Shown: piece by piece, positions 23,996 through 59,099 of the stretch
How positions within the stretch are numbered: the first letter of the stretch is position 1
How the letters are laid out: every line of letters starts with the position of its first letter
NCBI GenBank assembly: GCA_051294905.1
Contig: CM119385.1
Span: 11,036,001 to 11,100,000 of the forward strand
Length of the DNA stretch: 64,000 nucleotides
From: Botryllus schlosseri
Taxonomy: Eukaryota
Direction: 5' to 3'
Translations under genes and position numbers: made by a program
The notes under the pieces: model-generated
Seen by the model: the letters and a program-made list of their open reading frames with translations, nothing else
The model's database searches: none
Told to the model about the DNA's origin: nothing

Positions 23996-24025
23996 TAGTT
24001 GATGCTCACTGTTATCTTCAAAACC

Positions 24026-24520: not shown

Positions 24521-24619
24521 AAGCTCGATCGCAGTTACTATTTGTTATATTTACATCATGGGTTCCGTGCGAATAAACGGTTGTAAGTTTATTGGATCCA
24601 AGGCCGTATCATGGATAGT

Positions 24620-24814: not shown

Positions 24815-25541
24815 CGTGACGTAAAGCAAGTGTGATATGAACTACAGAACCATTCAGATTTATAGATGCACCTTTATCGTCTCTAATACTAATTCGAATT
24901 CGATTGGCATATTCCGCAATCATAGGGAAAAAGTAGATTTTCTCAAAAATGTGATGTTGGTATTCATTGTTAGCTGCTGTGATAGGGATATTTCGCAATA
25001 GCGGTGCATTCGTATCACCAACTGTTTGTGGTCGAATGAGATCGGTATAGACCAATAAATTACTTATCGGTGCGATGCTATCTCGCAGGAACATTTGCGA
25101 AGTTAAATATTTTCCTTGCGGTAAATTTTGTTCTTTAAGATTTCCATATACGAAAACCGGATTTCTGATTCTCTTTGGATTTCTTCGGAAATTCGGAAAG
25201 GCACCTGCTTCGCTAGGGGGAATGACTAGCATAGCCGTGGAGCTTGACAGCTGATTTATCCATACCTTTGTCTGAGTACGATTGATTCTATCGATCAAGC
25301 TTTTGAAATCATAATAATCCCCATTTGGATAGAAAAAATAATTATTGCTTTGCGCTGCCAACAGAGCAGATGATTTTTCCTCTTGAAATTCCCATAACAA
25401 TCCATTGAAATGGGGTAAAGTAGCTTGAAACTGATTACGAACTGAAAATTCTGCAAGCCCCAACTCCCATTTTCCAGTGATGGGACGCGCCAAGTCAAGT
25501 ACAAAATCCGATTTCGAACTGCTAATGTGAATGTATTTCAT
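24792..25541 (-). CDS. Minor capsid (penton-like) protein 2, intact copy, 249 aa
   Basis: N-terminal KWELGLAEF and C-terminal LLVYTDLIRPQTVGDTNAPLLRNI...IRISIRDDKG...VHITLALR match the Maverick minor-capsid pattern; full-length ORF. Confidence 0.85.
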   Translation of the reverse strand: MKYIHISSSKSDFVLDLARPITGKWELGLAEFSVRNQFQATLPHFNGLLWEFQEEKSSALLAAQSNNYFFYPNGDYYDFKSLIDRINRTQTKVWINQLSSSTAMLVIPPSEAGAFPNFRRNPKRIRNPVFVYGNLKEQNLPQGKYLTSQMFLRDSIAPISNLLVYTDLIRPQTVGDTNAPLLRNIPITAANNEYQHHIFEKIYFFPMIAEYANRIRISIRDDKGASINLNGSVVHITLALRHDESTLLL

Positions 25542-26159
25542 AACGCAATAGCACGCTTTCGAAATTGCAGTACAGCACTAGACGGTGCACTCCGAAAAGG
25601 AATTTTTTCACCCTTATCATTCAACAAAGATATTTTTATACGTTCCAATCTATTTATATTTATAGGGAAAAAGAAAGGCTTTATGTAGTATTTGGAAAAC
25701 GCCTTCTTATCTCCCTCGACTTTCACCACTCGCAATAGGCGCTGTAATGTACCATTGGATTCTTGCGGTTCAATAATATCGCAATGAACGTATACAAAGT
25801 CAATCGACGGTAAGGGTGTTATATCGAAATTGAAATGTATTTTTTTCTTTGAGAAAGAATATGCGGATAGCGCTGCTGTATTTGGTAACACGAAAGTCGC
25901 GAGAGTGTAGGCATCTGGAATTTCTATATTCTTCAACGTTGCTGTATAATCGTTCTCTGCAGTCACGATATTGCATTGCGTATCCACTCCTGGATAAAAG
26001 ATATCTGTGATGTCTTCGTGTGGAATTGACACAGTTAGGGTATTGCTCTCAGGAAAACATTTTACTGCTACATCGGGGTTGATACTTTCTATGGTTTTTA
26101 ACATGGCGTAGAGCGAGTCATATTGTCCAATTTTCAGGCGGAATCGTCTAAAGCTTTGT
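25538..26159 (-). pseudogene. 5'-truncated copy of penton-1
   Basis: Matches the 35158-35979 protein from QSFRRFRLK onward; lacks the first ~66 codons. The upstream 'N-terminus' in the ORF track is an alternative frame of ORF182. Confidence 0.8.
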
Positions 26160-26696
26160 CTGAGAATTGTTTGGCATCCATTTTTGATTGCCGTATTGCG
26201 TATTGCTATTTGGAAAGGTACCATTAGCATTGCCAGCATTCCGGAATCTTGCATTGGTATTCGACATGCCACCATTCCCAGCAAAGTTGCCATAACCATT
26301 TGGAAATCCCGCTTTTGCGCGATCCATAGGTTGTATTTGACCATTCGGCGCAATGTAACGCGATGTTTCTTGTAAAATCCACCCCAGCGGTGAATTTTCT
26401 ACGTCATCAACGACGTTCGACGGAGAATATAATATATATTCATCAGCGAGATTGATTTGCTGAAAGTATTCGATACCTTCTCGAGTGTAACACGCAACGA
26501 GCTTCCCATCATGAGTTAAACTTGCTTTGAATCTTTGTATTGCACCATTCGTTGGAAACACACGTACTTGTCGAGCATCGATCAGCTGATCGTCTGCAGT
26601 TTCGATTCGAAGCTTCGATATGTTATTGAAAATGTAAATGTCCTTCCGAAGAGCTCCTTCTGGGAGTTGCGACTCGGCTCTAATTGCTATAGACAT
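26148..26696 (-). CDS. Orphan Maverick protein (182 aa) with Gly/Asn-rich tail; C-terminus clipped by the duplication junction
   Basis: ATG-initiated ORF; its last codons ACA AAG CTT TAG lie inside the duplicated penton sequence. Confidence 0.65.
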   Translation of the reverse strand: MSIAIRAESQLPEGALRKDIYIFNNISKLRIETADDQLIDARQVRVFPTNGAIQRFKASLTHDGKLVACYTREGIEYFQQINLADEYILYSPSNVVDDVENSPLGWILQETSRYIAPNGQIQPMDRAKAGFPNGYGNFAGNGGMSNTNARFRNAGNANGTFPNSNTQYGNQKWMPNNSQTKL

Positions 26697-26806
26697 GATT
26701 CGATCTAAACAATGTCTCTTGAATAGAACTGAAATTATGGAGTAGCTACTGTGGTTTTTATAGACCTCGGCGTGTTCTTTTCTCTGATTTTTTTTTTTTT
26801 AAACTT

Positions 26807-27050
26807 AAATTTAAAATGATTGAATATCTCACACGTTGCGTCGCTGTTTTGCAACTGTCACAGATTCAAATTCAACGCAGCAGCTGTTATTTTTCAAATT
26901 TAAAATGATTATCTCGAACGTTGCGCAACTGTTTCACAACTGCCGCAGATTCAAATTCAACGCCGCAGCTGTTGTTTTTAAATTTAATATATCTCGGACG
27001 TTGCGCAACTGTCACTGGCACAGTTTCAAATTCATAGCCGCAGCTAGTTT
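26807..27050 (+). repeat. Three tandem ~85-bp units in the Maverick intergenic region
   Basis: Units start at 26807, 26896 and 26980 (AAATTTAA...ATCTC..ACGTTGCG...CAGATTCAAATTCAACGC.GCAGCTGTT). Confidence 0.85.
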
Positions 27051-27190
27051 GATAGGTGCATGCGTGTTATTGTGATCGCATACTAGGTGAGGGACCCACG
27101 TGAACACTTATTCATTGGAACTTAAACGCCTTAACCACTCAGCCAACTCAGTATATATTCACGATGTTTAGCCTCAGCTATGCGACCACT

Positions 27191-27398
27191 ATTTAGAGAT
27201 AGCAGTCATTTGCGTTTTTGATATTATAGAGTATTACGATCGAATCGCTACGAGTAACGCACTGTCTAACTCATTGGGGAATTGATTTTTCAACGCGATA
27301 TTTAGAGCTAGCAATGCTAAGTTCCACTAAGTCCGAACAGCTGCGTTTTGTTATTGTTGAGTATCGCGCAGTTGTCAATAGGGAATAGATTTTCAATG
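27191..27398 (+). repeat. Two degenerate ~109-bp tandem units
   Basis: ATTTAGAG.TAGCA...TGCGTTTT...GAGTAT...GGGAAT.GATTTT at 27191 and 27300. Confidence 0.6.
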
Positions 27399-27453
27399 GT
27401 TTAGATACGCTCAGTAGATACGCCGTTTAGACTTTAGTTATTGAGTATTGAGA

Positions 27454-27594
27454 ATGAATACTGAACAAGCCGTAAATGACGAGATGGAACAAGTCGCAGT
27501 AGATAACGAAAGTAGTACGACTCAAGTTGACGTGATTGACATCACCGGCGATGATTGCAGTAAAGCTAAATCAACCAGCGAAGATTTTGAATAA
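27454..27594 (+). CDS. 46-aa acidic micropeptide with a SUMO-interacting motif
   Basis: MNTEQAVNDEMEQVAVDNESSTTQVDVIDITGDDCSKAKSTSEDFE*; below the ORF-track cut-off. Confidence 0.55.
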   Translation: MNTEQAVNDEMEQVAVDNESSTTQVDVIDITGDDCSKAKSTSEDFE

Positions 27595-27622
27595 CAATCC
27601 TTAACTTTTTGTTATAATTCAA

Positions 27623-27860
27623 CGATTGCGTATTGCAGCATGTATAGTATTGATTACTTCATATGCATAGTTGATTACTTTAGTTATTACGAGAGCGTCA
27701 TTGCTTAGTTACAGTACCGCTGAGATATGATTGCGTCCAGTCCAATAACACCGAGAAATACGTTATTACGATTGTGTAGTTGAAGCATGTTCATGATTAC
27801 GTCATATGCGTAGTTGATTACTTTAGTAACGCTGAGATATGATTACTGCGTTGATTGCCT
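27623..27860 (+). promoter_or_regulatory. Internal copy of TIR promoter modules upstream of ORF217/pPolB
   Basis: Shares GATTGCGTATTGCAGCATGT, AGTAACGCTGAGATAT, AGTTGATTAC and CATGATTACGTCA blocks with 23840-23995. Confidence 0.65.
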
Positions 27861-27917
27861 TTGCAGTTGAAGCAAGTGCAAGGCAATATATAACGTGTAA
27901 TATTTAGTACATGACAT

Positions 27918-28571
27918 ATGTTTTTGAGTAGTGATATAGCAAGCTATGTATTGAGTACTTTTGAAAAGTTAAATGCCGACAAATCTATTTGCATGTTTCC
28001 GAATTGTGCTATTGTTTTCATTAATAATGCTGCTCTCCTAGAGACTATTATGACACGTACAGCTGTGAACTGTGATTATGGCTTGATTAAGCCTGCCTCT
28101 TTCTGGATGTTTTGTAAAAATGGCTCTGAGATCATTAATTCAATCTTTTATTGTTTGCAGCTCAGTATGGATAACTTTATTGACATAAGTGACTTGTTAG
28201 ATATGAACGCACCTCATCAAAGTGTAACGATGCAGGCTCCGAGAAAAGACATGAACAAGATATATCAGAGTCAAAATGAAAGCCGAAAGCGCTCGCGTCA
28301 AGACACTATGTCTTTGATCGAAGGTCTAGTTGACGACGATTTGAAGATGGAAGCTATGTGGAATCGACTTGTTTCGATGGAAGTATTTGACCAAGACTAC
28401 TCGAAAAATTTTCTAAACATAATTAAAAACACCATGAAAGACATTGAAAAACTATCTAGTGACTCGAATGCTTGCATTGTTGAGATTCAGCGTCTTGAAA
28501 AAATTAAGTTTGTGTTTCTATACGGTGTGATTAAATGTAAACTGCGCTTGAAATATGGATTCAATTTCTAA
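27918..28571 (+). CDS. Orphan Maverick protein, 217 aa
   Basis: ATG ORF overlapping the pPolB start; basic patch SRKRSR and helical C-terminal part; no family recognised. Confidence 0.7.
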   Translation: MFLSSDIASYVLSTFEKLNADKSICMFPNCAIVFINNAALLETIMTRTAVNCDYGLIKPASFWMFCKNGSEIINSIFYCLQLSMDNFIDISDLLDMNAPHQSVTMQAPRKDMNKIYQSQNESRKRSRQDTMSLIEGLVDDDLKMEAMWNRLVSMEVFDQDYSKNFLNIIKNTMKDIEKLSSDSNACIVEIQRLEKIKFVFLYGVIKCKLRLKYGFNF

Positions 28572-31500
28572 TATATGTACTGACTATTGTCTTGGTATTT
28601 TTCAGATACTAGTATCTATGGCGCGACGCAGGCGATATGGAGATCGTGGATTTCTGGTCGACGAAACGCTGGGTTTCGAACAAGACGGCATAGAGGTGAT
28701 TGAAAGACACTACGATTCCATCATCGATTCGACATGGACTTCAAGAAACAACTTACGAGAAATCATCAACATTCGAATGGTCGGAAGAGGTCCGCTCGAA
28801 ATTCACGCGCGTATTGCAGACATTTACCCCAGAAGATATCGTCAGTTCAAGATGAATTTCGCGTATGGGTACTTATTATTCAACCGTGACACATCCAGAT
28901 ATAGTTATTATCATCCTCAGAGTTCTCAAGCGGTTTTTACTGTCCCTAAAACTATCATATCACGCGAAGATTTCGATTCCGTCACGAATGAGATCGATTT
29001 GACGGCAGGTTTTGAATATGCCAATCGAGTGCGACCAGATACGAAATTCTACTGTGCTGATGTGTTGCATATTTCCATTTACATTTATGAGATGGATAGA
29101 GCTTTACTTGGTGGAAGTACTATCATTTCCCCGGAGATGCAAGCATTAAGCAAATGTAACTATATCATGACTTTCCTGCGTAACCAAAAAGGCAAAGCAT
29201 ATGAGGATTCTTTGTGTATTTTCCGCTGCGTTTCATATAGCATGAAAAAAAAGCGTAATGAAACACATGTTCGGCAATTGGCCGCGCAATTCACAGCCCG
29301 TTACGATATCTCGACTGAGAACGGAGTAGCTTTTGAAGACTTATCAAAAGTTGAGGATTGTTTTCAAGTTCAAATACTGCTTTATGAAAAACGTAATCAA
29401 GGCACAGTCATGCTGCGTAATTCTCATGCTAATGGAATGACTATACCTATTCACATGCAAGATCATCACTGTTGCCTGATTAGGGACCTGACATTGTACA
29501 CGTCTACCTATATGTGTGACAAGTGTAAATTTTTCTTTACTAGAAAAGATAATTTGATAGAGCATATGAAAAGCATTGATTGTGAGCGTCCTCAAAAACA
29601 GCGACACGGTTTCGGTATTTATCGCCCTAAGATGACTGTGTTTGAGCGAATGGCCGAACAAGGAATTTTGGTTAGCTCTGAAAAACGATATTACCCCTTC
29701 CGAATCGCTTATGATTTCGAGAGTTTACTAGAAAAAGAAAATCTTCGAGCTGACACACCGAAAGTTGAAATTGTCAACAAGCATGTTGCGGTATCGGTAT
29801 CTCTCTCAGATAATGTTACGAATGAAACGCATACACTCATTTCCAACGGTGATCCCAACGTTTTAATCAACGATATGGTGGCAAAACTATATGAAATTCA
29901 AAACGTCGCATCTTCGCATATGCGGCAGTTATTTGAAGAAGAATTGAAAGATTTTCGCATGTTAATAGAGCATCGCAATGCAATTGAACCAGGCAAAACT
30001 CGCTATTTAGATCGCTTGTATCGTCACTTCGAAATTTGGTTGGATCAAATACCTGTGATTGGATTCAACTCGGCTCGTTACGACTTGAATCTTTGTAAAA
30101 AATATTTGATTCCTATACTGCAAGAAGAAAGTGGATTTTTTGTTTTGAAACGAAACAGCGCATATCTGACCATCAGTACCAACCGATTGAAATTCCTTGA
30201 TATTTCACTGTTTCTGTCACCGGGTTATAGTTTGGACGCGTACTTGAAAATTTATGGAAATGGGGTGGACAAAAAATTCTATTTTCCATACGAGTACATG
30301 ACTTGTATTGATAAATTGAATGACACGCAATTACCTCCACACGAGATGTTCTATAGCAGTCATCGAGGCACTAATATCACCGCGGCGCAATACCAAGAAT
30401 GCGTAGATATGTGGAATCGTCTGCAAATGAAAACCATGCGAGACTTTCTAACTTTTTATAACGAAAGTGACGTGATTGGCTTTCTGGTTGCGTTAGGTAA
30501 TAACGCTGCCTTTTATCAAAAGTTGGGTATTGACATGTTCAAATCTGCTATCAGTTTACCAAGCATAGCCAATCGACTCATGTTTGCAGAATGTTATGAC
30601 ATCGCGCTGTTCAGTAAAGCGAATGCTGATCTCCATCAAACTGTAGTGAGCAATCTATTCGGTGGTCTGTCACAAATATCGACACGATTTGCAATGAAAG
30701 ACGAAACGAAAATTCGTGAAATACAGTACGGCGACGCAGCGAAATACGTGAAAAAGATAATCGGATATGACGCAAATTCGCTCTACCTCGCATCCATCGA
30801 TCAATGCATGCCGTGTGGATTTCCAATCAGGTGGTTGTATGACGAAACCAAACAAAAATTTCACAGAAAGCCAATTTACCCTGCGATGGCAGAACTCGAA
30901 TGGCTTACTTATGAAAGTTATCAGCGCGATATTTCAATTCAACACGCCTGGAACGGCAAGCAAGCTAAACTTGGCTCGCGTCAAATTTCGGTTGATGGCT
31001 TTTCGCTTGAATATCAATTGATATTCCAATATCATGGATGTTTTTTTCATTGTTGTGATCGGTGCTATAAGGACGACGCAAACATTGAGCGACGTATTAA
31101 AACAGAAGAAATCACTGCCTATCTCGAAGAGTTGGGATACACGATAATATCAATACGCGAATGTGAATGGAATCGCATGAAACTCAACCCTGACATTGCG
31201 CAGTTTGTTTCGTCACTACAAAGAAATGTAACAAAAGAATATTATCTCACTGCGAATCAACTATTAGATCGCGTATTTCATCAACAGTTCTTTGGGGCAT
31301 TGGAAGTCGATGCGTACTGCCCCGATGAATTAAAAGCAAAATATGCAGAATTTCCGCCATTTTGTAAACATATCTCGGTGGATTTATGCGATGTCGGCGA
31401 ACATATGCGCGAATATGCCCGTCAAAACAATGTGAAATTTCCAAAGAAGTTTTTGGGCTCTAGTTATTTCACTGAGAAACAACTAATTACAAGTGATTTG

Positions 31501-32484
31501 TTGGGTTGGTACATGGATCACGGTATGATTATTACACGCATATATCAAGCCGTGGAATACGAAGCCAAACGACCATTTCAAAAGTTTGTAAATTCTGTCG
31601 TAACGCAAAGGCGAAAGGGTGATGTAACCCCTAAAGACCCAGCACGTGAAATGGAGGCCTTGACCTTCAAATTATGTGGAAATTCCGCGTTTGGGTCCAC
31701 TATACAGAACCCAATGAAGTACAGAAACCATACCTATGTAAAAGGTGATGAGTTGAAATCACACATTCAGAAAAAAAACTTTATTGACGCCGATGAACTT
31801 TCTGAAGATCTGATCGAGGTTAGCTCGTTACCAGATTCAATTGACGTCGATCAACCGATCATTGTAGGTCTATTCATCTTTAACTCCAGTAAATTACGCA
31901 TGCTTTCGTTTCTGTATGACTTTTTACATGAGTATTTAGAGGAATGCGACTTCAGTTATTTGGAGGGAGATACTGATAGCCAATATCTGAGTTTATCAGC
32001 TGATTCAATCTACTCCCTAATTAAACCTTCGCGAAGGAAAGAATTTTTTCAAGTTCATGATGAATGGCTCATACAGAGAGCTTGCGCGCTGCATCGAGCA
32101 GACTTTGAGCGTGATCCGATCGCTTTCAAAACCACCGAACCGTGCTGTGTCGCTGCTTACAATTATGCTAAACGAATTCCTGGTCTGTTCAAAGTAGAAT
32201 GGGAGGGTCATGGGTTTATTGGATTGAACTCGAAAACGTATTACTGCAAGGGTGAGACTGATAAATATTCATCCAAAGGTTTGAGTAAATCCGCCTCTAA
32301 GACCTTCAAGGATTTTGAAGGCGTGTTGCAAAACCGTTCCACTTGCGGCGGGATTAATTCTGGGTTTCGCTGTTTTAATGGTAATATTTTTACTTATAAG
32401 CAATATCGTTCTGCTTTGTCGTATGGTTACTATAAAAGAGTTGTTTTGCCGGATGGCATACATACTGTACCGCTTTCATTGTAA
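28555..32484 (+). CDS. Protein-primed family B DNA polymerase (pPolB), 1309 aa
   Basis: Exo I AYDFES, Exo II GFNSARYD, Exo III YNESDV; motif A GYDANSLY, motif B KLCGNSAFG, motif C GDTDS; Zn finger CDKC..H and a Vsr-like insertion VDG...QYHGCFFHC. Confidence 0.97.
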   Translation: MDSISNICTDYCLGIFQILVSMARRRRYGDRGFLVDETLGFEQDGIEVIERHYDSIIDSTWTSRNNLREIINIRMVGRGPLEIHARIADIYPRRYRQFKMNFAYGYLLFNRDTSRYSYYHPQSSQAVFTVPKTIISREDFDSVTNEIDLTAGFEYANRVRPDTKFYCADVLHISIYIYEMDRALLGGSTIISPEMQALSKCNYIMTFLRNQKGKAYEDSLCIFRCVSYSMKKKRNETHVRQLAAQFTARYDISTENGVAFEDLSKVEDCFQVQILLYEKRNQGTVMLRNSHANGMTIPIHMQDHHCCLIRDLTLYTSTYMCDKCKFFFTRKDNLIEHMKSIDCERPQKQRHGFGIYRPKMTVFERMAEQGILVSSEKRYYPFRIAYDFESLLEKENLRADTPKVEIVNKHVAVSVSLSDNVTNETHTLISNGDPNVLINDMVAKLYEIQNVASSHMRQLFEEELKDFRMLIEHRNAIEPGKTRYLDRLYRHFEIWLDQIPVIGFNSARYDLNLCKKYLIPILQEESGFFVLKRNSAYLTISTNRLKFLDISLFLSPGYSLDAYLKIYGNGVDKKFYFPYEYMTCIDKLNDTQLPPHEMFYSSHRGTNITAAQYQECVDMWNRLQMKTMRDFLTFYNESDVIGFLVALGNNAAFYQKLGIDMFKSAISLPSIANRLMFAECYDIALFSKANADLHQTVVSNLFGGLSQISTRFAMKDETKIREIQYGDAAKYVKKIIGYDANSLYLASIDQCMPCGFPIRWLYDETKQKFHRKPIYPAMAELEWLTYESYQRDISIQHAWNGKQAKLGSRQISVDGFSLEYQLIFQYHGCFFHCCDRCYKDDANIERRIKTEEITAYLEELGYTIISIRECEWNRMKLNPDIAQFVSSLQRNVTKEYYLTANQLLDRVFHQQFFGALEVDAYCPDELKAKYAEFPPFCKHISVDLCDVGEHMREYARQNNVKFPKKFLGSSYFTEKQLITSDLLGWYMDHGMIITRIYQAVEYEAKRPFQKFVNSVVTQRRKGDVTPKDPAREMEALTFKLCGNSAFGSTIQNPMKYRNHTYVKGDELKSHIQKKNFIDADELSEDLIEVSSLPDSIDVDQPIIVGLFIFNSSKLRMLSFLYDFLHEYLEECDFSYLEGDTDSQYLSLSADSIYSLIKPSRRKEFFQVHDEWLIQRACALHRADFERDPIAFKTTEPCCVAAYNYAKRIPGLFKVEWEGHGFIGLNSKTYYCKGETDKYSSKGLSKSASKTFKDFEGVLQNRSTCGGINSGFRCFNGNIFTYKQYRSALSYGYYKRVVLPDGIHTVPLSL

Positions 32485-32488
32485 TAAA

Positions 32489-33109
32489 ATGAACCGTGCA
32501 CGTGTTTTATACTCGCCTCTTCGTATGATAATTAGTGGAGCATCGTCCAGTGGAAAAACAGTTTTCGCCTATAGAATCATACAAAATGCCGACAAGCTCA
32601 TCGTACCTCGACCGAGAAAGATCATCTGGTTATATAATAACTATCAACCGTTGTATGATAAGATGAAAGGAGTGTCATTTTACAAGGGTCTAGACAAGTT
32701 GAAAGATTTACAGAGAGCTAATAGTGAACATACGTTAATTGTGCTAGATGACATGATGACGCAAGCAAGTCAAGTGCGTGAACTGTTCACCAGATATAGT
32801 CATCACATGTCGCTCTCAGTGGTGTTTCTCTGTCAAAATCTATTTCACCGTGGAGCAGGCTTCCGTGACATTACGCTGTCTAGCAACTATATTGTCATCA
32901 TGAAAAATCCTCGTGATTCCGCCCAGATTCGATATCTTTCACGTCAAATGTTTCCAGATAAACCAAATTTTCTCACGGAAGCCTACAAGAGAGCAACTCG
33001 TAAGCCTTATAGTTATATCATGGTTGATTTGACGCAGGAAACACCCGAACAGTATCGACTTCGCAGCAACATTTTTCCAAGCGAACGTATGACCGTGTAT
33101 TTGGAATAA
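32489..33109 (+). CDS. A32/FtsK-like DNA packaging ATPase, 206 aa (start MNRARV)
   Basis: Walker A GASSSGKT, Walker B LIVLDD, FLCQNLF motif. Confidence 0.93.
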   Translation: MNRARVLYSPLRMIISGASSSGKTVFAYRIIQNADKLIVPRPRKIIWLYNNYQPLYDKMKGVSFYKGLDKLKDLQRANSEHTLIVLDDMMTQASQVRELFTRYSHHMSLSVVFLCQNLFHRGAGFRDITLSSNYIVIMKNPRDSAQIRYLSRQMFPDKPNFLTEAYKRATRKPYSYIMVDLTQETPEQYRLRSNIFPSERMTVYLE

Positions 33110-33144
33110 ATAGCGCTGTACTCGAACATCCACTATCATTCGCA

Positions 33145-33549
33145 ATGGCGAGGTCACGCGGTGTTTTGAAAAAAACTTTAAATAATCATCTTATCAAGTT
33201 GAAGCTGCTAAAGAGTGCTAAAAAGAAGGAACGTAACGAGTTATTAACTCACAAAGCTTTTACTAGCTGTGTGTGTGAGTGTCTTCGTAACCTTGTCTCG
33301 GGCAATATAGCTATTTCAAGTACGAGTAAGGCACGATTGAAGAAGCATAAAACTAACATTCGCAAAGTGTTGTGCTGTAAATCTCAAAAACAGAAGCAAA
33401 AAACATTACAACAGGGTGGCTTTTTATCAGGTGAATATACATGCGATTCGATTCGATTCATGATCTAACTTTAATGATTGATAGCGATCTTAAGTGCTGC
33501 AATTCCGATTATTGGAAGTCTGTTGGGCGGATTGACTAGACATGCGTGA
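33145..33549 (+). CDS. Basic core protein (pVII/PW-like), spliced: exons 33145-33430 and 33485-33549, 116 aa
   Basis: CECLRNLVSGN and QQGG|F adenain-type site; removing the GT-AG intron restores the amphipathic end QQGGFLSAILSAAIPIIGSLLGGLTRHA. Confidence 0.8.
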
Positions 33550-34003
33550 ATTGTACTTCCCGTCTTTACAATCAAAAGACGCCTACGAAAAGAAATTCAA
33601 TGAACATATCGCAAGCATCAGGGACTCTGATTTGACACGCACCGAAAAATTAGCACTATTTCAACACGGCATTAGACTATTGAGAAATCTACGTGCAAAT
33701 AAGAAATTGATCAAGTCGTCGTCCCGCGCACCCGCAGCGCCCGCTACCGATGAAACAATTGCCGCGTCGCATCCGCCCGGAGCGGCGCCCGCTATTAATA
33801 ACACATTTGACGCGACACCTCCGCCCGCAACACCCGAGATTTGGAACAATTACGAAGCGGTAACTCCACCCCATACACCTAAAACTTCAAAGAAAAAAGT
33901 TAAAAAGAAGAAAGCCAATAAACCTCCAGTTAATTGGCAAAGCATTGACGGTCCGCGCAAACGAAAGCCGAATCAACGCTACACAGGAAAGTTATGGACA
34001 TGA
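33542..34003 (+). CDS. Maverick virion/core-type protein, Pro/Ala-rich middle and Lys-rich tail, 153 aa
   Basis: ATG overlaps the spliced upstream stop; helical IRDSDLTRTEKLALFQ segment is like the conserved small ORF found before Maverick integrases. Confidence 0.7.
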   Translation: MRELYFPSLQSKDAYEKKFNEHIASIRDSDLTRTEKLALFQHGIRLLRNLRANKKLIKSSSRAPAAPATDETIAASHPPGAAPAINNTFDATPPPATPEIWNNYEAVTPPHTPKTSKKKVKKKKANKPPVNWQSIDGPRKRKPNQRYTGKLWT

Positions 34004-35001
34004 CGCAAGACTATTTCGATCCCCGCAAACCAAACTCCTATAGAGGAGCTTATTTACAGAAAGACAAAGAATGGTTGAAATCAGAACAAAGTTATACCCT
34101 GCATTTTCCTATACGAAAAAAATTTACTCGCGAGAAGGTGGTAGTCTCTGGAATTGATAGTCAGTTTCAGAGCGATTTGATTGATGTGCAGTCTATTTCT
34201 AAATACAATCGTGGATTTAGATATCTGGCTTTGGTTATTGATACGTTTTCAAAGTTTGTGTGGTTGATTCCAATTAAAGATAAAACTGGTCGCAGTATGA
34301 TTTCTGCTTTCCGACAAGTGTTCAATGAGAGGCTGCCTTTAGTGTTGCAGACTGATAGAGGTACAGAATATACCAATCGAGCTTTTCAAAACTTTCTCAA
34401 GAAAAATAAAGTTCGTTACTTTTACACAAAAAGCGAATTGAAGTCGTCTCTCGCCGAGCGCTGTATTAGGACTTTCAAGGCAATCTTGTACCGCTATTTC
34501 ACAAAGAATAACACCAGTAAATACATCGACGTGCTACAGGATTTCGTATATTCCTATAATCACACCAAACATACGTCGTTAGGTATGGCTCCTAGTCAAG
34601 TCAATTCACACAATCAAGAAGCTATTTGGCAAAAAATGTACGGGTTTCGACAAGCTACACTTCCCACACTGACGAAAGGGACAGCCGTACGCATTTCGAA
34701 AATTCGCGGGCTTTTTGAAAAGAGCAGTAGACCCAATTGGACAACTGAGATATTTTATATCATCGACGCAATGGCTGGTGACCCTCCGATGTATCACCTG
34801 CGTGACTATAATCATGATGTCATCGATGGGAGGTTTTACAGAGAAGAACTACAGGTAGTGACCGAACCTACAGAGTGGCGTGTTGAAAAGATTATAAAGA
34901 GACGTCAACGCGGCAAACACCGTCAGTATTTAGTGAAATGGGTAGGATATGGATCAGAATTCAATTCCTGGGTCGATCAAAAAGATATCGTCAAACCGTA
35001 A
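33994..35001 (+). CDS. Retroviral-type (rve) DDE integrase with C-terminal chromodomain, 335 aa
   Basis: QSDLID, QTDRGTEY and AERCIRT catalytic motifs; chromodomain WRVEKII...YLVKWVGY...NSWV. Confidence 0.95.
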   Translation: MDMTQDYFDPRKPNSYRGAYLQKDKEWLKSEQSYTLHFPIRKKFTREKVVVSGIDSQFQSDLIDVQSISKYNRGFRYLALVIDTFSKFVWLIPIKDKTGRSMISAFRQVFNERLPLVLQTDRGTEYTNRAFQNFLKKNKVRYFYTKSELKSSLAERCIRTFKAILYRYFTKNNTSKYIDVLQDFVYSYNHTKHTSLGMAPSQVNSHNQEAIWQKMYGFRQATLPTLTKGTAVRISKIRGLFEKSSRPNWTTEIFYIIDAMAGDPPMYHLRDYNHDVIDGRFYREELQVVTEPTEWRVEKIIKRRQRGKHRQYLVKWVGYGSEFNSWVDQKDIVKP

Positions 35002-35161
35002 CTTTTATCAATTCATCGCTCAAGTCGTGGTTATATTGATCATAGTGATTTTTTCACTCTACAATTTAACAATCGTTCAAGAAAACAAGGAGCTTTGGGT
35101 ATCGTTATTATCGTCGTGTGTGGGTTATATGTTACCAGCTCCAAAAATACCTAAACTATGA
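34949..35161 (+). CDS. Small two-TM membrane protein
   Basis: FIAQVVVILIIVIFSLYNL and LWVSLLSSCVGYMLPAP; TATGA overlap with the penton-1 start; typical Maverick small hydrophobic ORF. Confidence 0.7.
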   Translation: MDQNSIPGSIKKISSNRNFYQFIAQVVVILIIVIFSLYNLTIVQENKELWVSLLSSCVGYMLPAPKIPKL

Positions 35162-35979
35162 GTTATGTGACGTTATTTTCCAATGCTTCTATGGACATGT
35201 TTCCTGGCAATACAACCGCAGAATATGTCAACGAAATGCAGACGGCTAGAAATGTAGAGAGAAATGAAGTCGCTCTGACGGAGATCAGTTTTCCAAGAGA
35301 TTTTGAAAAACGTATCGAGTCACAAGCTTCTTTCGGATTCCAAATTACGGGTATCGAACAAAGCTTTAGACGATTCCGGTTGAAAACAGGACAATATGAC
35401 TCGCTCTACGCCATGTTAAAAACCTTGGAAAGTATCAACCCTGATGTAGCAGTAAAATGTTTTCCTGAGAGCAATACCCTAACTGTGTCAATTCCACACG
35501 AAGACATCGCAGATATTTTATATCCAGGAGTGGATACGCAATGCAATATCGTGACTGCAGAGAACGATTATACAGCAACGTTGAAGAATATAGAAATTCC
35601 AGATGCCTATACTCTCGCGACTTTTGTGCTACCAAATACAGCAGCGCTATCCGCATATTCTTTCTCAAAGAAAAAAATACATTTCAATTTCGATATAACA
35701 CCCTTACCGTCGATTGACTTTGTATACGTTCATTGCGATATTATTGAACCGCAAGAATCCAATGGTACATTACAGCGCCTATTGCGAGTGGTGAAAGTCG
35801 AGGGAGATAAGAAGGCGTTTTCCAAATACTACATAAAGCCTTTCTTTTTCCCTGTAAATATAAATAGATTGGAGCGTATAAAAATATCTTTGTTGAATGA
35901 TAAGGCTGAAAAAATTCCTTTTCGGAGTGCACCGTCTAGTGCTGTATTGCAATTTCGAAAGCGTGCTATTGCGTTATGA
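35158..35979 (+). CDS. Minor capsid protein (penton) 1, 273 aa
   Basis: N-terminal YVTLFSNASMDMFPGNT and C-terminal VYVHCDIIEPQ...LLRVV...IKISLLNDK...VLQFRK match the Maverick penton pattern. Confidence 0.9.
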   Translation: MSYVTLFSNASMDMFPGNTTAEYVNEMQTARNVERNEVALTEISFPRDFEKRIESQASFGFQITGIEQSFRRFRLKTGQYDSLYAMLKTLESINPDVAVKCFPESNTLTVSIPHEDIADILYPGVDTQCNIVTAENDYTATLKNIEIPDAYTLATFVLPNTAALSAYSFSKKKIHFNFDITPLPSIDFVYVHCDIIEPQESNGTLQRLLRVVKVEGDKKAFSKYYIKPFFFPVNINRLERIKISLLNDKAEKIPFRSAPSSAVLQFRKRAIAL

Positions 35980-36708
35980 AATACATTCACATTAGCAGTT
36001 CGGAATCGGATTTTGTACTTGACTTGGCACGTCCCATCACCGGAAAATGGGAGTTGGGGCTTGCAGAATTTTCAGTTCGTAATCAGTTTCAAGCAACTTT
36101 ACCTCATTTCAATGGATTGTTATGGGAATTTCAAGAGGAAAAATCATCTGCTCTGTTGGCAGCGCAAAGCAATAATTATTTTTTCTATCCAAATGGGGAT
36201 TATTATGATTTCAAAAGCTTGATCGATAGAATCAATCGTAGTCAGACAAAGGTATGGATAAATCAGTTGTCAAGCTCCACGGCTATGCTAGTCATACCCC
36301 CTAGCGAAGCAGGTGCCTTTCCGAATTTCCGAAGAAATCCAAAGAGAATCAGAAACCCGGTTTTCGTATATGGGAATCTTAAACAACAACATTTACCGCA
36401 AGGAAAATATTTAACTTCGCAAATGTTCCTGCGAGATGGCATCGAGCCTATTAGTAATTTATTGGTCTATACCGATCTCATTCGACCGCAAACAGTCGGC
36501 GATACGAATGCACCGCTATTGCGAAATATCCCTATCACAGCAACATCACATTTTTGAGAAAATCTACTTTTTCCCTATGATTGCGGAATATGCCAATCGA
36601 ATTCGAATTAGTATTAGAGACGATAAAGGAGAATCTATAAATCTGAATGGTTCTGTAGTTCATATCACACTTGCTTTACGTCACGATGAGAGCACATTAC
36701 TGTTGTGA
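35976..36708 (+). pseudogene. Penton-like protein 2, frameshifted by a 17-bp deletion at 36542/36543
   Basis: ORF stops at 36557; the C-terminus continues in another frame to 36708. The inverted copy keeps GCTAACAATGAATACCA (24958-24974). Confidence 0.88.
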
Positions 36709-37054
36709 TCGTGAAGCTTTTCAACACTATTATCGAAATCAAAGCGGAGGGGACATAAACTACTTTCGAGGTCGAGTGCAAAGAGGTCACGGTCTAGGTA
36801 ATCTATTTCGCAGTTTGGGACGTAGTGTGGTACCCTTGATTTCCAAAGGAGCAAAAGCTCTGGGTAGACAACTACTTCACACCGGGGCTGAAGTCGCTTC
36901 TGACGTATTGGGAGGACAAAACATTGGAGAAAGCTTTAAAATCAGAGGAAAGCAAGCTGCTAGTCAAGCACTTGATAATTTCCTAGGGAAGAGAAAAGCA
37001 CCTAAAAAGAAAAATACCAAACGGAAAAAACGTCGCCGGGATATTTTTGATTAA
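36686..37054 (+). CDS. Cement/pX-pVI-like virion protein (start MRAHYCC)
   Basis: QSGG and QRGHGLG Gly motifs, amphipathic GLGNLFRSLGRSVVPLISKG helix, basic tail; lies just before hexon. Confidence 0.8.
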   Translation: MRAHYCCDREAFQHYYRNQSGGDINYFRGRVQRGHGLGNLFRSLGRSVVPLISKGAKALGRQLLHTGAEVASDVLGGQNIGESFKIRGKQAASQALDNFLGKRKAPKKKNTKRKKRRRDIFD

Positions 37055-37104
37055 ATACAAATAGCAAGCCTTCCTCTTTTCATTTACAAGTAGACCCGCG
37101 GAAC

Positions 37105-38382
37105 ATGACGGAGCTGATTCATAGCAAATCTGCTGAAGGTATTCATCCGTCTTTAGACCTTTTCCAGATACCACCTACTCAGACGAGTGTAGAGAAAAAA
37201 CGTATCATCAAGATACCCCCTGTTTCGGACAATGAATCCGTCATAACTTTCAGATACGAGGGGTGTGGAGATTTCATAGATCTAAGCGAATCTTATTTTT
37301 TATTTCGTTTGAAACTGTTGAAAGGCGATGCGGATTTAGTCGCAAATGATGATATTGGCGTTGTCAATAACATTTTAGATTCAATGATTTCACAACTTCA
37401 CATTAAAGTTGGAAATCACACGATCAAGCAGGATATAAAACTACAGGCGTATTCAGCCTACTTGAACTATCTGTTCGCCCCACAAGACGTACAAAAGTCA
37501 ACGCTTTTGACACAGGGTTGGGTCAAAGATACCCCTGAGCAATTAGATGATAAGGCTATAGGCGATGCTGCAGCTAACAAAGGTCACAACGCGAGAAGTT
37601 TGCCTTTTGCAATCAGTAAAGTTGTTGAAATTAGAGGCCGAATACATCACGGATTATGCTTACAAGACCGTTACATTCTGGACGAGGTACCCTTGGAGTT
37701 CGAACTCACTTTGAACCCGAAAAGTTTCTTTCTGTTTGGAGTGAATACTAGCAATTTCAAAATTATTAAAAAAGAGCTGCAATTGTGTGGTGTGAAAGTA
37801 AGCGAAGATGTGAAATCCGCTATGATGGTCGATGCTCCAGCTAGATATCCGTTTATGGACATGAAGCTTCTGACAAGAACTTTCGCAGCTAACACCACTC
37901 AAATCGATATTGGTAATCTGTATTCGGGTACTCTACCGACTCGTTTAATCATCGGTATGGTAGCGACTAAGGCATTCCAGGGTGCGTTCGATAAAAATCC
38001 ATACAATTTTATTCATAACAAAATGAAGCGTGTCGAATTGAAAGTCAATGGTTTCCTGATACCGGAAGGTGGATACGAACTTGATTTTGAAAACAATCAC
38101 TATTCTGAAGCCTATCTCAATATGGTTCAAGGCATAGGAGCTCTCGAAAAACAGATCGGAGTTCTCACCCCGAAGGAATTCGCTAATGGATATACTCTTC
38201 TAGTATATAACTTGCGAGCTGATGATTTAGACGACTGTTTCGAACTGCAGAAAAGCGGTACCCTTAGTCTGCGCATCACTTTTCCTGCTGATGGTGTCGC
38301 GAGCGAAACAACTCTGCTTTGTTTCATGGAATTTCAAAAAATACTGGAAATAAGCCAAGCTCGCACCGTTACTGTAATATGA
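37105..38382 (+). CDS. Major capsid protein (hexon, double jelly-roll), 425 aa
   Basis: SLDLFQIPPTQTSVE N-terminus, GTLPTRLIIGMV...AFQG..KNPYNF, and C-terminal GTLSLRITF...MEFQKILEI match the Maverick MCP pattern. Confidence 0.95.
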   Translation: MTELIHSKSAEGIHPSLDLFQIPPTQTSVEKKRIIKIPPVSDNESVITFRYEGCGDFIDLSESYFLFRLKLLKGDADLVANDDIGVVNNILDSMISQLHIKVGNHTIKQDIKLQAYSAYLNYLFAPQDVQKSTLLTQGWVKDTPEQLDDKAIGDAAANKGHNARSLPFAISKVVEIRGRIHHGLCLQDRYILDEVPLEFELTLNPKSFFLFGVNTSNFKIIKKELQLCGVKVSEDVKSAMMVDAPARYPFMDMKLLTRTFAANTTQIDIGNLYSGTLPTRLIIGMVATKAFQGAFDKNPYNFIHNKMKRVELKVNGFLIPEGGYELDFENNHYSEAYLNMVQGIGALEKQIGVLTPKEFANGYTLLVYNLRADDLDDCFELQKSGTLSLRITFPADGVASETTLLCFMEFQKILEISQARTVTVI

Positions 38383-38831
38383 ACGGACTAGAAATAGATG
38401 AAATATTGTATAGTTACGATTCCACCAAACGACATTATCTAGGAAATTTTCCTATTGATCGACTTCCTCGGCGACCGAAAGCTCCCTACTCATTAATCAT
38501 TAATTATGACGAGGCCGACGAACCAGGAAGTCACTGGGTATGCATCTACGCTGATGAATATGGAACTCATTATCATGACAGCTTCGGCATAACTCCGTTC
38601 AGAAACGAAATACCCTGTTTCTTAGAACCTGAAAAGTATACAAGTTCGATCAAACCATTACAGCACAAACGTTCAGAGGCTTGCGGAGCGCACGCAATTT
38701 CATTCCTAAGCTGCCGCAGTGATGGTATGAGCACGCTGTCTTATTTAGACCACTTCGGAAAAGATAAGAAACACAACGATAGTATAGTCTGGGACTTTGT
38801 TCAAAGATTGAAACGAAATGCGAGCAAATAG
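38379..38831 (+). CDS. Adenain-like cysteine maturation protease (start MNGLEI), 150 aa
   Basis: Catalytic H (GSHW), D (YHDSFG), Q (LQH) and C (SEACG); ATATGA overlap with the hexon stop. Confidence 0.93.
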   Translation: MNGLEIDEILYSYDSTKRHYLGNFPIDRLPRRPKAPYSLIINYDEADEPGSHWVCIYADEYGTHYHDSFGITPFRNEIPCFLEPEKYTSSIKPLQHKRSEACGAHAISFLSCRSDGMSTLSYLDHFGKDKKHNDSIVWDFVQRLKRNASK

Positions 38832-39135
38832 CTTCACTGTCATACAGTACTTTGGAGATGAGAAGATTCGACTGAAAATCAGAGAAAAAATCATTGTAAT
38901 GAATCCTGAACGCATTCACAGACTTTCATCTGATAGCTTTCATATACGTATTTATCCGCATGACCGAGATATTACATTATTCATTGGAACTGATTGGTTG
39001 CCTGTACGCTTTCCTAATCATTGTATGTACATAGACGTGTTATCGAAACATAGAATTGCTCAACAAATCAGTGAAGAATTTGTTGTTTTTCGTAGACTAA
39101 AAATCTGGGAATCTCTGACTAGATCGCGTATATAA
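38818..39135 (+). CDS. Orphan accessory protein, 105 aa
   Basis: ATG overlaps the protease end; beta-rich; no family recognised. Confidence 0.6.
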   Translation: MRANSFTVIQYFGDEKIRLKIREKIIVMNPERIHRLSSDSFHIRIYPHDRDITLFIGTDWLPVRFPNHCMYIDVLSKHRIAQQISEEFVVFRRLKIWESLTRSRI

Positions 39136-39252
39136 ATGGAAGATGCCGATGATATCTTAGCTGTCGTGTTCATCGTACTGCTTACTATTTGTTGTATACT
39201 GGAATGGGTATCATGTTGCTGTCAAGAACGTGAGCAAGCTAGTGAAGCATGA
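39136..39252 (+). CDS. 38-aa single-TM, Cys-rich micropeptide
   Basis: MEDADDILAVVFIVLLTICCILEWVSCCCQEREQASEA*; abuts the upstream stop (TAA-ATG) and overlaps the next start (ATGA). Confidence 0.6.
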   Translation: MEDADDILAVVFIVLLTICCILEWVSCCCQEREQASEA

Positions 39253-39566
39253 CCATGGCAAGAATTTCTGTTGCTACTCAGTTTGAGTCGAGTCGTAATT
39301 ATGAGGAAATGATTGTATTGCCCAACGTGAGATCAATTACCATTCCCTACACGTGTATACTTTTCCATTATGATAATAGAATTGTAGTGAAACCAATTGA
39401 AGATTGTGTTACATACCCATCGCGTAATATCATTGTCTGTAAAGACGAATATTATCGTGTGCTTTATAAATCGTGCTTGGTCATTGATTTCAAGGGCAAG
39501 GCGATTGTTGTTGGTAATATAATCCTATTCCAAGCGTTTTGTGATGGTCGTTTCATAACTCAATAA
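39249..39566 (+). CDS. Orphan accessory protein, 105 aa
   Basis: ATGA-coupled; stop lies within AATAAA, the likely end of the rightward transcription unit. Confidence 0.6.
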   Translation: MTMARISVATQFESSRNYEEMIVLPNVRSITIPYTCILFHYDNRIVVKPIEDCVTYPSRNIIVCKDEYYRVLYKSCLVIDFKGKAIVVGNIILFQAFCDGRFITQ

Positions 39567-39617
39567 ATCACTGACTCGTGTTCGGTTGTGTTTATCCATT
39601 AGGTAGTAGCAAAATGC

Positions 39618-39689
39618 AGATTCGTCCGGGATTTGAACCCGGGACCTCTCGCTCCCAAAGCGAGCATCATACCCCTAGACCAACGAATC
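39618..39689 (-). tRNA. tRNA-Pro(UGG), Maverick-encoded
   Basis: 72 nt: GATTCGT/ACGAATC acceptor stem, CTCGC-TTTGGGA-GCGAG anticodon arm, CCGGG-TTCAAAT-CCCGG T arm; A and B boxes intact; TTTT terminator 3 nt downstream. Confidence 0.93.
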
Positions 39690-39865
39690 AGCGCACAATG
39701 CAAGCTGCATCAGACCAGTGCAACTTCGTCAATAAATCACTAACTCGCGCTATTTTTCATATAACCAACACATTATGGAGTTTTTATTACAAAGATTGCG
39801 ATCCACAATCAATATTTACAAGGCATAAACAAGTCACAAGCAAATGATAGTTTTAATCATTGTAA

Positions 39866-40336
39866 TCACGCTGACAAATCGCAGTCGACTCTGGCATAGC
39901 GTTCGGTATATTGCTGAGCGCGTTTAAAGTAGAGTTGTCTATCTTCCAGATAGAGATGTGCACTTTCCGCATTCATAGGATCGTTTGGATTTGGTGCGCC
40001 AAGTAACGAAGATATTGATAGCAGCACAGTTGATGTAGTTAGCGCTGGTGACCATTGCTTCTGCAAAATATCCACGCATATAGTGCCTTTCACACTAATG
40101 TTCGGGTGAAATATATGAGTTTCAAATCTCATCTTCGGAGGTCGAAACGGATACTCTGTGGGATATTCTATTAATATTTTAAACACTCCTTTTTCGTATG
40201 GTGTTCCCTGGGGTCCTTCAATTGTTGCCCACCAACTAAATAGATTCGATTCGTCAATCGGTCCCGCTTTGATAGTAGAATCAGAACAATTCCGAAACTT
40301 TTCTCGCTCGAAACACAGTCTTTTCAAAGCACACAT
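39866..40336 (-). CDS. Ubiquitin-conjugating enzyme E2 (UBE2D/Ubc4-like), 156 aa from MCALKRL
   Basis: EGPQGTPYEKGVF, EYPFRPPK, HPNI...ICVDIL (catalytic Cys), WSPAL; intronless; ATTAAA/AATAAA downstream. Confidence 0.95.
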   Translation of the reverse strand: MCALKRLCFEREKFRNCSDSTIKAGPIDESNLFSWWATIEGPQGTPYEKGVFKILIEYPTEYPFRPPKMRFETHIFHPNISVKGTICVDILQKQWSPALTTSTVLLSISSLLGAPNPNDPMNAESAHLYLEDRQLYFKRAQQYTERYARVDCDLSA

Positions 40337-40405
40337 TCTGAGTGACAATCAAATTGAAATGATTGCGCCACCTTTGCGTCATTAGCACTTCAACGGAAAA
40401 AAGAG

Positions 40406-40477
40406 TGGAGAATACGGGAATTGAACCCGTGACCTTCTGCTTGCAAGACAGCTGCTCTACCGCTGAGCTAAATCCCC
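40406..40477 (-). tRNA. tRNA-Ala(UGC), Maverick-encoded
   Basis: 72 nt GGGGATTTAGCTCAGCGGTAGAGC...CTTGCAA...GGGTTCAATTCCCGTATTCTCCA; G3:U70 pair; A and B boxes; T6 terminator at 40397-40402. Confidence 0.88.
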
Positions 40478-40500
40478 AAGCGATAGTGACGGCTTAAATG

Positions 40501-40800
40501 TTAGTTTTGAGCAGTAGCATTAGCAAATTTATGAGATAGTTCTACTGTAGCTGTTGACTTGAAAACAACTCGATGTTCTTCTTTCGTTACTTCAGTATCG
40601 TATATCTTCATAGTTTTTCTTTCGTCTTGATCACATGGTACCAGCTCTGTATAATTACATCCTTCACATTCTACTATAGTGAAAGGATACGATATTTCCA
40701 TTACATCCACACCAACCATCTTCATACATTTCGAATATACTATCCATGATACGGCCTTGGATCCAATAAACTTACAACCGTTTATTCGCACGGAACCCAT
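40501..40800 (-). CDS. Orphan accessory protein, 99 aa (start MGSVRING), straddling the right TIR boundary
   Basis: TATAAAA ~40 bp upstream; the first 21 codons lie in the TIR, and the left copy stops at the junction (24559-24623). Confidence 0.65.
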   Translation of the reverse strand: MGSVRINGCKFIGSKAVSWIVYSKCMKMVGVDVMEISYPFTIVECEGCNYTELVPCDQDERKTMKIYDTEVTKEEHRVVFKSTATVELSHKFANATAQN

Positions 40801-41672
40801 GATGTAAATATAACAAATAGTAACTGCGATCGAGCTTTTATAAGTGATACCACGTGACAAAATGCCTCCATCCACCATTTTGTTCTATCCACTTTCGTTT
40901 TTTAGTAGCAATGTAATTCCCGAGTGTCTGTATGATAGCATCTATATCCCTGCCGTTATGCGCAGCCTCGTTATTGCGAGCAAGAATGCCGCCAAGCACA
41001 TAAAGAGACACAATCCGACCCCAATTTTCTTGACTATCTTTGAATATTTCATCGGCTATCATCAGGAACATTCGCTCAATGGGTGAATGTTCTTTATATT
41101 TCTCATTGACTTCACTATAACGAAGGCGCTTGGAGACTGCGTTTAGGATAGTTCGATATCGCTCAAATATTTCAGTAACAACTCGTCGTAAGGTTTTCTC
41201 CACCTGTGTATTTGCTTTAACGCTTGAGCCGTCGATTTCATACATGATAAAATTTCTAGCTAAGGAATATGCCGTGGATATAATTTCATCCTTTTCTTCA
41301 GTGAGCGCAGGTGATACTCGCAATAATTCCATGGTTTTGAAGATAACAGTGAGCATCAACTACGCTTGTGACGTAATCATGAATATGGTGCAATACGCAA
41401 TCATAGGTAATCAACTTACGCAATGACGTATAATGACGTAATCATTATACACATGCTGCAATACGCAATTATAGGTAATCAACTTACGCAATGACGTAAT
41501 AAATATCTCAGCGTTACTGGACTGGAACTATGCCATCTCTCACACAACCAAAACCTCTCTCGTATTGGAACCACACCCACTTCGTTCTGCATTCTGATTG
41601 GCTAACAGATGTCACGTGATCAAATACTCGACGCTGATTGGGGCGCGCCTCGTTACCGTGTATAATACTACT
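40739..41672 (-). repeat. Right terminal inverted repeat (934 bp)
   Basis: Reverse complement of 23686-24619; ends ...AATACTACT followed by the TSD GCCTTA. Confidence 0.95.
40838..41332 (-). CDS. Bcl-2 family protein, right TIR copy
   Basis: Translation identical to the left copy (NWGR, GGW). Confidence 0.9.
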   Translation of the reverse strand: MELLRVSPALTEEKDEIISTAYSLARNFIMYEIDGSSVKANTQVEKTLRRVVTEIFERYRTILNAVSKRLRYSEVNEKYKEHSPIERMFLMIADEIFKDSQENWGRIVSLYVLGGILARNNEAAHNGRDIDAIIQTLGNYIATKKRKWIEQNGGWRHFVTWYHL

Positions 41673-59050: not shown

Positions 59051-59099
59051 TAATGTAAAAATGAAGCCAATGAAGCAAGGAAGTAAGTCCAGATTAGTA

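Follow-up and report, generated by a model that had tools for sequence, protein, structure and literature searches.

tRNA genes as cargo of Maverick/Polinton elements in the genome of Botryllus schlosseri

tRNA genes have been published for the polinton-like viruses (PLVs) of protists, with 558 genes in about 8300 genomes (PMC12220804), and for virophages (PMC6905037). The available parts of both sources propose that these tRNAs compensate for codon usage or confer resistance to tRNA depletion; Leu(TAA), Pro(TGG) and Gln(TTG) are among those of virophages. PLVs and virophages are described there as mid-size, double jelly-roll dsDNA elements, often integrated and with one or two tRNA genes, features that are shared by the element reported here.

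Animal Mavericks and adintoviruses have in common with this element their core genes, AGT-repeat termini, 6 bp target duplication, size and accessory end regions, and Bcl-2 and IAP cargo has already been reported from them (available parts of PMC8097293 and PMC8502044). The main text of PMC8097293 does not contain the term tRNA; in the available parts of PMC8502044 the term occurs once, in a figure legend on MELD viruses with other replicases, and zero times in one text supplement. Starrett's gene maps are figures, and any tRNA flags in them would be invisible to a text search. A full-text literature search, with many subscription papers outside its scope and figures not text-searchable, returned no tRNA report for animal Mavericks. 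Pol III genes are known from other nuclear DNA viruses of animals, i.e. the VA RNAs of adenovirus and the tRNA-like RNAs of MHV68.

Element structure and gene content

The window, i.e. the whole 64-kb stretch of DNA analysed, contains a Maverick/Polinton element of the adintovirus type, 17,987 bp long (positions 23686..41672). It is flanked by a 6 bp target duplication, GCCTTA (23680-23685 and 41673-41678), and its ends read AGTAGT...ACTACT. The left terminal inverted repeat (934 bp, 23686..24619, plus strand) matches the right one (40739..41672, minus strand) at 100%. Terminal inverted repeats with AGT-repeat ends and a 6 bp target duplication characterise Mavericks/Polintons in the available part of PMC8097293, and the gene content agrees, with a protein-primed PolB, an rve integrase, an A32-like ATPase and a double jelly-roll capsid protein.

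The packaging ATPase (32378..33109, plus strand) is A32-like (PF04665, E 1.1e-9), and the retroviral-type integrase (33994..35001, plus strand; PF00665 (rve), E 1.8e-13) possesses a chromodomain (PF00385, E 7.9e-10). The protein-primed B-family DNA polymerase of 1309 aa (28555..32484, plus strand) is assigned by Atlas look-alikes (PF03175, score 0.96) and by PolB motifs visible in the translation of this ORF. A Pfam search at E 0.01 returned no PolB match for it, and the divergent Beta class is described as likewise without a direct Pfam PolB match. The major capsid protein (37105..38382, plus strand) is a predicted double jelly-roll; the top Foldseek matches of its model (pLDDT 81) are the capsids of Sputnik, iridovirus and mavirus (E 1.5e-16 to 8.5e-15). 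For capsid and polymerase, sequence searches of solved structures gave no more than chance or weak matches. A candidate maturation cysteine protease (38379..38831, plus strand) is proposed from a weak S273R protease match (E 0.0026) and from its position after the capsid gene. An unknown ORF (40501..40878, minus strand), upstream of the tRNA-Ala gene treated below, has homologues in families B and C of the sibling elements.

The window copy is rearranged at its left, with a Bcl-2-family gene in both terminal repeats (24002-24520, PF00452, E 1.1e-20; and 40838-41356, minus strand, ORF and Pfam). An inverted internal copy (24618..26159, minus strand; I1 97%, I5 99%) repeats the minor-capsid-candidate region 35358-36882. 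One minor-capsid-candidate ORF that is split on the right-hand side is intact in its inverted counterpart; the candidate is assigned by position alone, in a region that is partly duplicated. The left end at 23686-26159 is built from inverted right-hand sequence, Bcl-2 within the repeat followed by the minor-capsid region. Outside the element, inverted repeats 100-200 bp long and 97-99% identical are clustered at positions 58600-62200, in a satellite-like or foldback structure.

tRNA genes, E2 and sibling copies

In the 64-kb window ARAGORN calls two tRNA genes and no more, each on the minus strand: tRNA-Pro(UGG) at 39618..39689 and tRNA-Ala(UGC) at 40406..40477, hereafter the element types. 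Both match Rfam RF00005, with 61.1 bits (E 2.7e-11) for Pro and 67.4 bits (E 5e-13) for Ala, well above the gathering score of 29. Each is 72 nt long, neither encodes the CCA end, and a T6 run lies 4 nt 3' of tRNA-Ala and a T4 run 4 nt 3' of tRNA-Pro. With a cloverleaf above the covariance threshold, intact A and B boxes and an oligo-T terminator, both have the properties of eukaryotic tRNA genes. Between them, and likewise inside the element, lies an intronless gene for a UBE2D-like ubiquitin-conjugating enzyme (E2) of 156 aa (39866..40336, minus strand; PF00179 (UQ_con), E 1.9e-48). Its ORF is uninterrupted, HPN77-79 and the catalytic Cys87 are kept, and named homologues at about 50-55% identity belong to the E2 D/E class. 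ARAGORN, the Rfam covariance scores and Pfam thus bear out the original prediction of two 72-nt minus-strand tRNA genes with A/B boxes and oligo-T runs that bracket an intronless E2 inside an element bounded by inverted repeats and a target duplication. It overlooked a third tRNA, a decayed tRNA-Leu(TAA) with two short deletions at ~27081..27152 (minus strand).

The 961-bp stretch with tRNAs and E2 has 11 full-length matches in the genome including the window (92-100%; family A). All 11 copies possess both tRNAs and an open E2, in agreement with cargo of the element and not with a one-off host insertion, and nine of the ten other copies have their own 6-bp target duplication. tRNA-Leu(TAA) is called by ARAGORN in eight of the 11, once with four changes, and is a remnant in the remaining three (the window and two others). 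Some sibling copies have only a T3 run downstream of a tRNA gene.

Further families were obtained from a capsid search of the genome, in which 99 of 273 candidates were scored, so that the counts are lower bounds: at least 12 copies of A/A', at least 14 of B, at least about 45 of C and at least 26 of D/E. The A' copy has tRNA-Ala only, and Ala stands alone in locus L013. Family B possesses a diverged tRNA-Ala(TGC) downstream of E2 in 13 of 14 copies, the fourteenth having lost the end that bears it; one B copy (L109) has a family-A tRNA-Pro just inside the opposite terminal repeat. In one C copy (L144), a third variant each of Ala and Pro follows an IAP gene, close to the inner edge of a terminal repeat, and E2 is absent. 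tRNAs were not found in nine of the ten family-C copies examined (three as 20-26 kb, seven as two 7-kb end stretches), nor in any of the four D/E copies examined (20 kb each). The polymerase tree groups A and B (96/93), followed by C, with D/E apart; tRNAs occur in three families whose polymerases are, in the N-terminal half, 52-63% identical to that of the window.

A fixed Ala/E2/Pro cassette, as originally proposed, is found in all 11 family-A copies and breaks down in L013, family B, L109 and L144. The unit is a movable tRNA set (Ala-UGC, Pro-UGG, Leu-UAA). Its Ala and Pro types appear to be either older than the A/B/C split or exchanged between families, and a B copy with near-identical Pro is a sign that such exchange happens.

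Several other loci contain related features. A decayed C-type right end (L194:1800-2520, G000:C10:24.18 Mb) has broken Ala- and Pro-like remnants adjoining the terminal repeat. Palindromic repeats of at least 10 kb (L160-L179, e.g. G000:C13:14006142-14016365; 40 of 419 candidates scored) possess tRNA-Leu(TAA) in both arms, with the variable-arm type of the Maverick gene and with fragments of the element Bcl-2 gene alongside; one palindrome pair has Leu(CAA) and an anticodon-shifted copy in addition. tRNA-Leu(TAA)-like matches at G000:C2:1138490-1138552 and 1155010-1155072, inverted and separated by 16.5 kb, possibly mark a further element whose terminal repeats contain Leu. Further Maverick cargo comprises a caspase-domain gene (L105:4167-4907), a single-BIR gene (L110:1594-1980) and a three-BIR IAP (L181:338-1531).

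E2 accompanies one tRNA in some copies and two in others, and tRNAs also occur where E2 is absent, which gives no sign of a functional coupling between them. E2 would be a separately acquired accessory gene outside any Pol III unit, sharing the variable end region with Bcl-2, IAP and caspase-like genes. The passages on animal Mavericks in PMC8097293 and PMC8502044 contain no E2 cargo, unlike the window element. Between families A and B the gene has a dS of about 2.7 and a dN of 0.28, and it is evidently under purifying selection. An intronless tandem E2 array elsewhere in the genome (L012, L023, L026-L029; G000:C1:34.1-34.4 Mb) encodes protein 60-70% identical to the Maverick E2, which groups loosely with it (90/91, not strong). 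No Maverick genes were found within 1.5 kb of the array at its six loci; it would be either the source of the Maverick E2 or a domesticated copy. tRNA punctuation and a common splice-acceptor signal ahead of the E2 start were considered and rejected: CAG precedes the ATG in family A, not in family B, and family B has no tRNA upstream of E2.

Among the 11 family-A copies, two of 144 tRNA columns are variable compared to 33 of 295 spacer columns (p=1.2e-4), with 22 of 471 in E2. The same comparison in family B (tRNA 5/71, spacers 30/181) is not significant (p=0.067). tRNA-Ala of A and B is 86% identical, in families whose E2 genes have reached the above dS of about 2.7. The Ala cloverleaf alignment (eight element and three host rows) has 96% of its cells paired and two-sided changes in nine of 21 pairs, a value as high as in none of 500 shuffles; most of these changes split host from element, and two T-stem pairs split the C variant from A/B. 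The identity pair G3:U70 is present in all eight element rows and invariant over all 11. In tRNA-Pro, three of the seven acceptor stem pairs show two-sided changes. Judged by sequence comparison, the tRNA genes are conserved Maverick cargo under selection.

A neutral origin, in which the element picked up tRNA genes of the host accidentally or retained them from integration beside tRNA loci, is very doubtful, and the comparison of tRNA with spacer variation has already largely refuted it. The patchy distribution across families and the decayed Leu copies would suit such passengers; variation below that of the spacers, two-sided stem changes and presence in three diverged families would not. 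Moreover, the element-type Ala and Pro matches of the genome all coincide with Maverick copies, in which the genes have an internal position, and these copies occupy separate sites with their own duplications.

A role at the DNA level, in which TFIIIC/Pol III sites act as insulators of the integrated element or protect its end regions from being silenced, so that they stay open, is improbable as judged from these sequences. The A/B boxes are intact and the genes are located in variable end regions, twice just inside a terminal repeat (L109, L144), as an insulator would allow. However, an insulator would need the boxes alone, yet anticodon, G3:U70 and stem pairing are kept, the last through two-sided changes outside the boxes, and all anticodons belong to one class.

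Possible codon supply and departures from host isoacceptors

That class is defined by the first anticodon base. All five Maverick-borne anticodons start with U, namely UGC, UGG and UAA in the host genome and UUC and UUG in a metagenome locus (L288). Across 294 kb in 80 metagenome loci that encode distant capsid relatives, 20 of these loci being at least 5 kb long, L288 alone contains tRNAs, Glu(UUC) and Gln(UUG). They come straight after the protease gene of a Maverick with integrase, capsid and protease, whose ends lie beyond the contig. L288 resembles the window element in its U34 anticodons and in the placement of the genes in the region after the protease, the two Mavericks being unrelated. 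Exact-pattern scans for the element-type tRNAs gave no match in viral contigs and none in prokaryote genomes, and no capsid relatives were confirmed in viral contigs.

By pattern count, the host possesses Ala genes with AGC (34), CGC (15) and TGC (12) and Pro genes with AGG (29), CGG (26) and TGG (14), i.e. Ala(UGC) (12/61) and Pro(UGG) (14/69) are the rarest. The Mavericks of the same genome carry 26 Ala genes (25 by pattern and the C variant) and 13 Pro genes. We give an even chance to the reading that these are working viral tRNAs which top up a scarce host supply of U34 Ala and Pro tRNAs for the AT-rich element genes. Host Pol III would transcribe the genes, RNase P, RNase Z and the CCA enzyme would mature the products, and AlaRS would charge via G3:U70 and ProRS via the anticodon. 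With the element copied outside the chromosome, tRNA dose would rise with genome number and ease the decoding of GCA, UUA and CCA. This reading is preferred because of the intact internal promoters, the constraint, the kept anticodons and Ala identity pair, the movable set and the few host genes. Among the three roles first suggested for a Pol III module, translation support is the best supported, and decoy and insulator functions leave the kept anticodon and G3:U70 unexplained.

Codon usage was compared between ten core genes of the element (3330 codons, GC3 0.39) and a small host set of HSP70, actin-family genes and 14 GPCR stretches (8644 codons, GC3 0.56). UUA is enriched 2.5x in the element (65/294 vs 67/767) and ranks first of 14 A-ending codons, and GCA, enriched 1.9x (59/197 vs 102/661), ranks second, with 1.4x only against the GPCR stretches alone. 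CCA, in rank 9 of 14, shows no enrichment (34/137 vs 78/370, 1.2x, p=0.40), and a joint rank test of UUA, GCA and CCA yields P=0.063. Families without detected tRNAs are equally rich in UUA; GCA is higher in the tRNA-bearing families (0.27 vs 0.20, p=0.017), which are also richer in GGA and GAA, codons without an element tRNA. The CCA result, the joint P value, the small host sample and the equal UUA richness of tRNA-less families count against the supply reading, as do the non-significant family-B comparison, the tRNA losses in C and D/E, the decayed Leu and the siblings with T3 only. In the sampled host genes CCG is the preferred Pro codon (152/370), and Pro(CGG) genes outnumber Pro(TGG) genes (26 vs 14), a combination that is to our knowledge unusual for an animal.

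The element tRNAs differ from their host isoacceptors. Element and host Ala(UGC) are identical at 53 of 72 positions, and 11 of the 19 differences fall into the 18-nt anticodon arm, where seven of 18 positions agree, compared to 16 of 17 in the D arm. The element Ala has C32/A38 and the host Ala U32/U38; at position 38 both host Ala and host Pro have U and all element variants have A, and at position 32 C replaces U in every element Ala variant and in the family-C Pro. A73 is kept alongside G3:U70, and that pair alone suffices for human AlaRS (available part of PMC7293025). Family-A tRNA-Ala has two stem mismatches, U6.U67 and G27.A43, and a predicted fold energy of -20.6 kcal/mol vs -29.1 kcal/mol for host Ala; folding z-scores (-0.9 to -1.7) were discarded as a discriminator, as they do not separate element from host tRNAs. 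Derivation of the Ala body from host tRNA-Thr(UGU) was also rejected, the element Ala agreeing with host Ala at 53/72 positions and its anticodon arm with Thr at no more than 10/18; in the Thr comparison only the arm and 3' counts are usable, the 5' part being one base out of register.

The element Pro shows seven differences from host Pro(UGG): the two-sided changes A2:U71 and U3:A70, and G26, A38 and U73. G1:C72 and the NGG anticodon are both present. The discriminator base C73 is absent from the element tRNA-Pro, with U73 in families A and B and A73 in the C copy, whose variant has G26, C32, A38 and A73. According to the available part of 10.1101/2020.09.11.293571, all cytosolic tRNA-Pro of eukaryotes have C73; human ProXp-ala requires this base and ProRS depends on it only weakly, and its change to A slows editing by human ProXp-ala 13-fold. 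The element tRNA-Pro is non-canonical and is predicted to be chargeable but poorly proofread. The family-C tRNA-Pro in L144 (L144:2434-2505) has U3:G70, G4:U69 and A73, and the tRNA-Ala next to it has G37. G4:U69 is an alternative signal for human AlaRS, and the L144 tRNA-Pro might be alanylated.

Since supply alone gives no account of the rewritten Ala anticodon arm and the lost Pro C73, a second reading is retained, in which working tRNAs would have been made different so as to escape a host tRNA nuclease, modification or proofreading step that halts translation wherever the element becomes active in a cell. By analogy with phages, for which escape from tRNA attack has a precedent (available part of PMC10264068), we consider it conceivable although unlikely. 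It would agree with the concentration of Ala differences in the anticodon arm, the shifts at positions 32/38 across element variants, the loss of C73 in both diverged Pro variants (U73, A73) and the host-control genes in the neighbourhood (Bcl-2, IAP, caspase-like, E2). On the other hand, the Schlafen/AlbA_2 family (PF04326), the one nuclease family searched for, gave no candidates in the genome, a result short of proof of absence. Stems would also change during long residence in a fast-evolving element, and the element Leu(UAA) differs at 31/32 in a direction opposite to the Ala and Pro changes. The changes may simply tune decoding, as positions 32 and 38 do (available part of PMC7293025). 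Supply and evasion are mutually compatible.

In its strongest form, that animal Mavericks evolved stealth tRNAs whose rewritten anticodon arm and C73 loss resist host tRNA-directed shut-off and ProXp-ala proofreading, the idea is speculative and has a low probability in our estimation. If true, stealth tRNAs would mean that the host animal has a so far unrecognised antiviral defence directed at tRNAs, and they would imply element-driven Pro-to-Ala mistranslation. The 26 Ala(UGC) and 13 Pro(UGG) element genes, set against 12 and 14 of the host, could reshape the host tRNA pool. The base-level remodelling of the element tRNAs is the part most worth testing.

Adenovirus VA RNA and the MHV68 tRNA-like RNAs show that mid-size DNA viruses use Pol III RNAs as decoys. 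By this analogy, the element genes could give rise to decoys, either VA-RNA-like or uncharged, for a stress kinase or another RNA sensor, or to regulatory tRNA fragments, which we regard as very improbable. The two stem mismatches and the weaker fold of family-A Ala would speak for a decoy. RF00005 is the sole Rfam family matched over the element, the charging determinants are kept, and there is no extension or hairpin 3' of the tRNA genes, where the T runs follow within 4 nt; a long hairpin RNA without tRNA identity, as in VA RNA, is thus not what the element encodes.

Comparison with known systems

Compared to VA RNAs and the MHV68 RNAs, the element genes are plain 72-nt tRNAs with identity elements kept, without a VA-type structure and without an attached hairpin. 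The bracovirus MdBV, like the window element an integrated dsDNA virus of an animal, possesses seven tRNA-Ser genes, but according to the available part of PMC4169385 it is nudivirus-derived, with non-replicating proviral segments and one amino acid served, and it is unrelated to Mavericks. Phage tRNAs resemble the element tRNAs in an anticodon loop that differs from host isoacceptors; host nucleases are known for phages in the available part of PMC10264068, and for the Mavericks the Schlafen/AlbA_2 search gave none.

The reason why viruses carry tRNAs, be it codon supply or escape from an attack on tRNAs by the host, is still debated, mostly on the evidence of phages. The genome studied here combines dozens of integrated copies, diverged families with and without tRNAs and the host isoacceptors, and the diagnostic bases of the element tRNAs make supply and escape separable directly in an animal. 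A non-coding cargo is thereby added to animal Mavericks, which are annotated by their protein genes in the available parts of published accounts.

The suggestion of an undescribed system was too strong with regard to the published tRNAs of PLVs and virophages; for animal Mavericks, no report was found in the sources available. The 18 Ala rows (of 55) and eight Pro rows (of eight) available from Table S12 of PMC12220804 all refer to non-animal hosts, whereas the host of the window element is, by its gene content, an animal. In contrast to the PLV and virophage tRNAs, those of the window element can be compared base by base with host isoacceptors, and their constraint is measured across copies. 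tRNA cargo appears to be new for animal Mavericks and is already known from their protist-host relatives.
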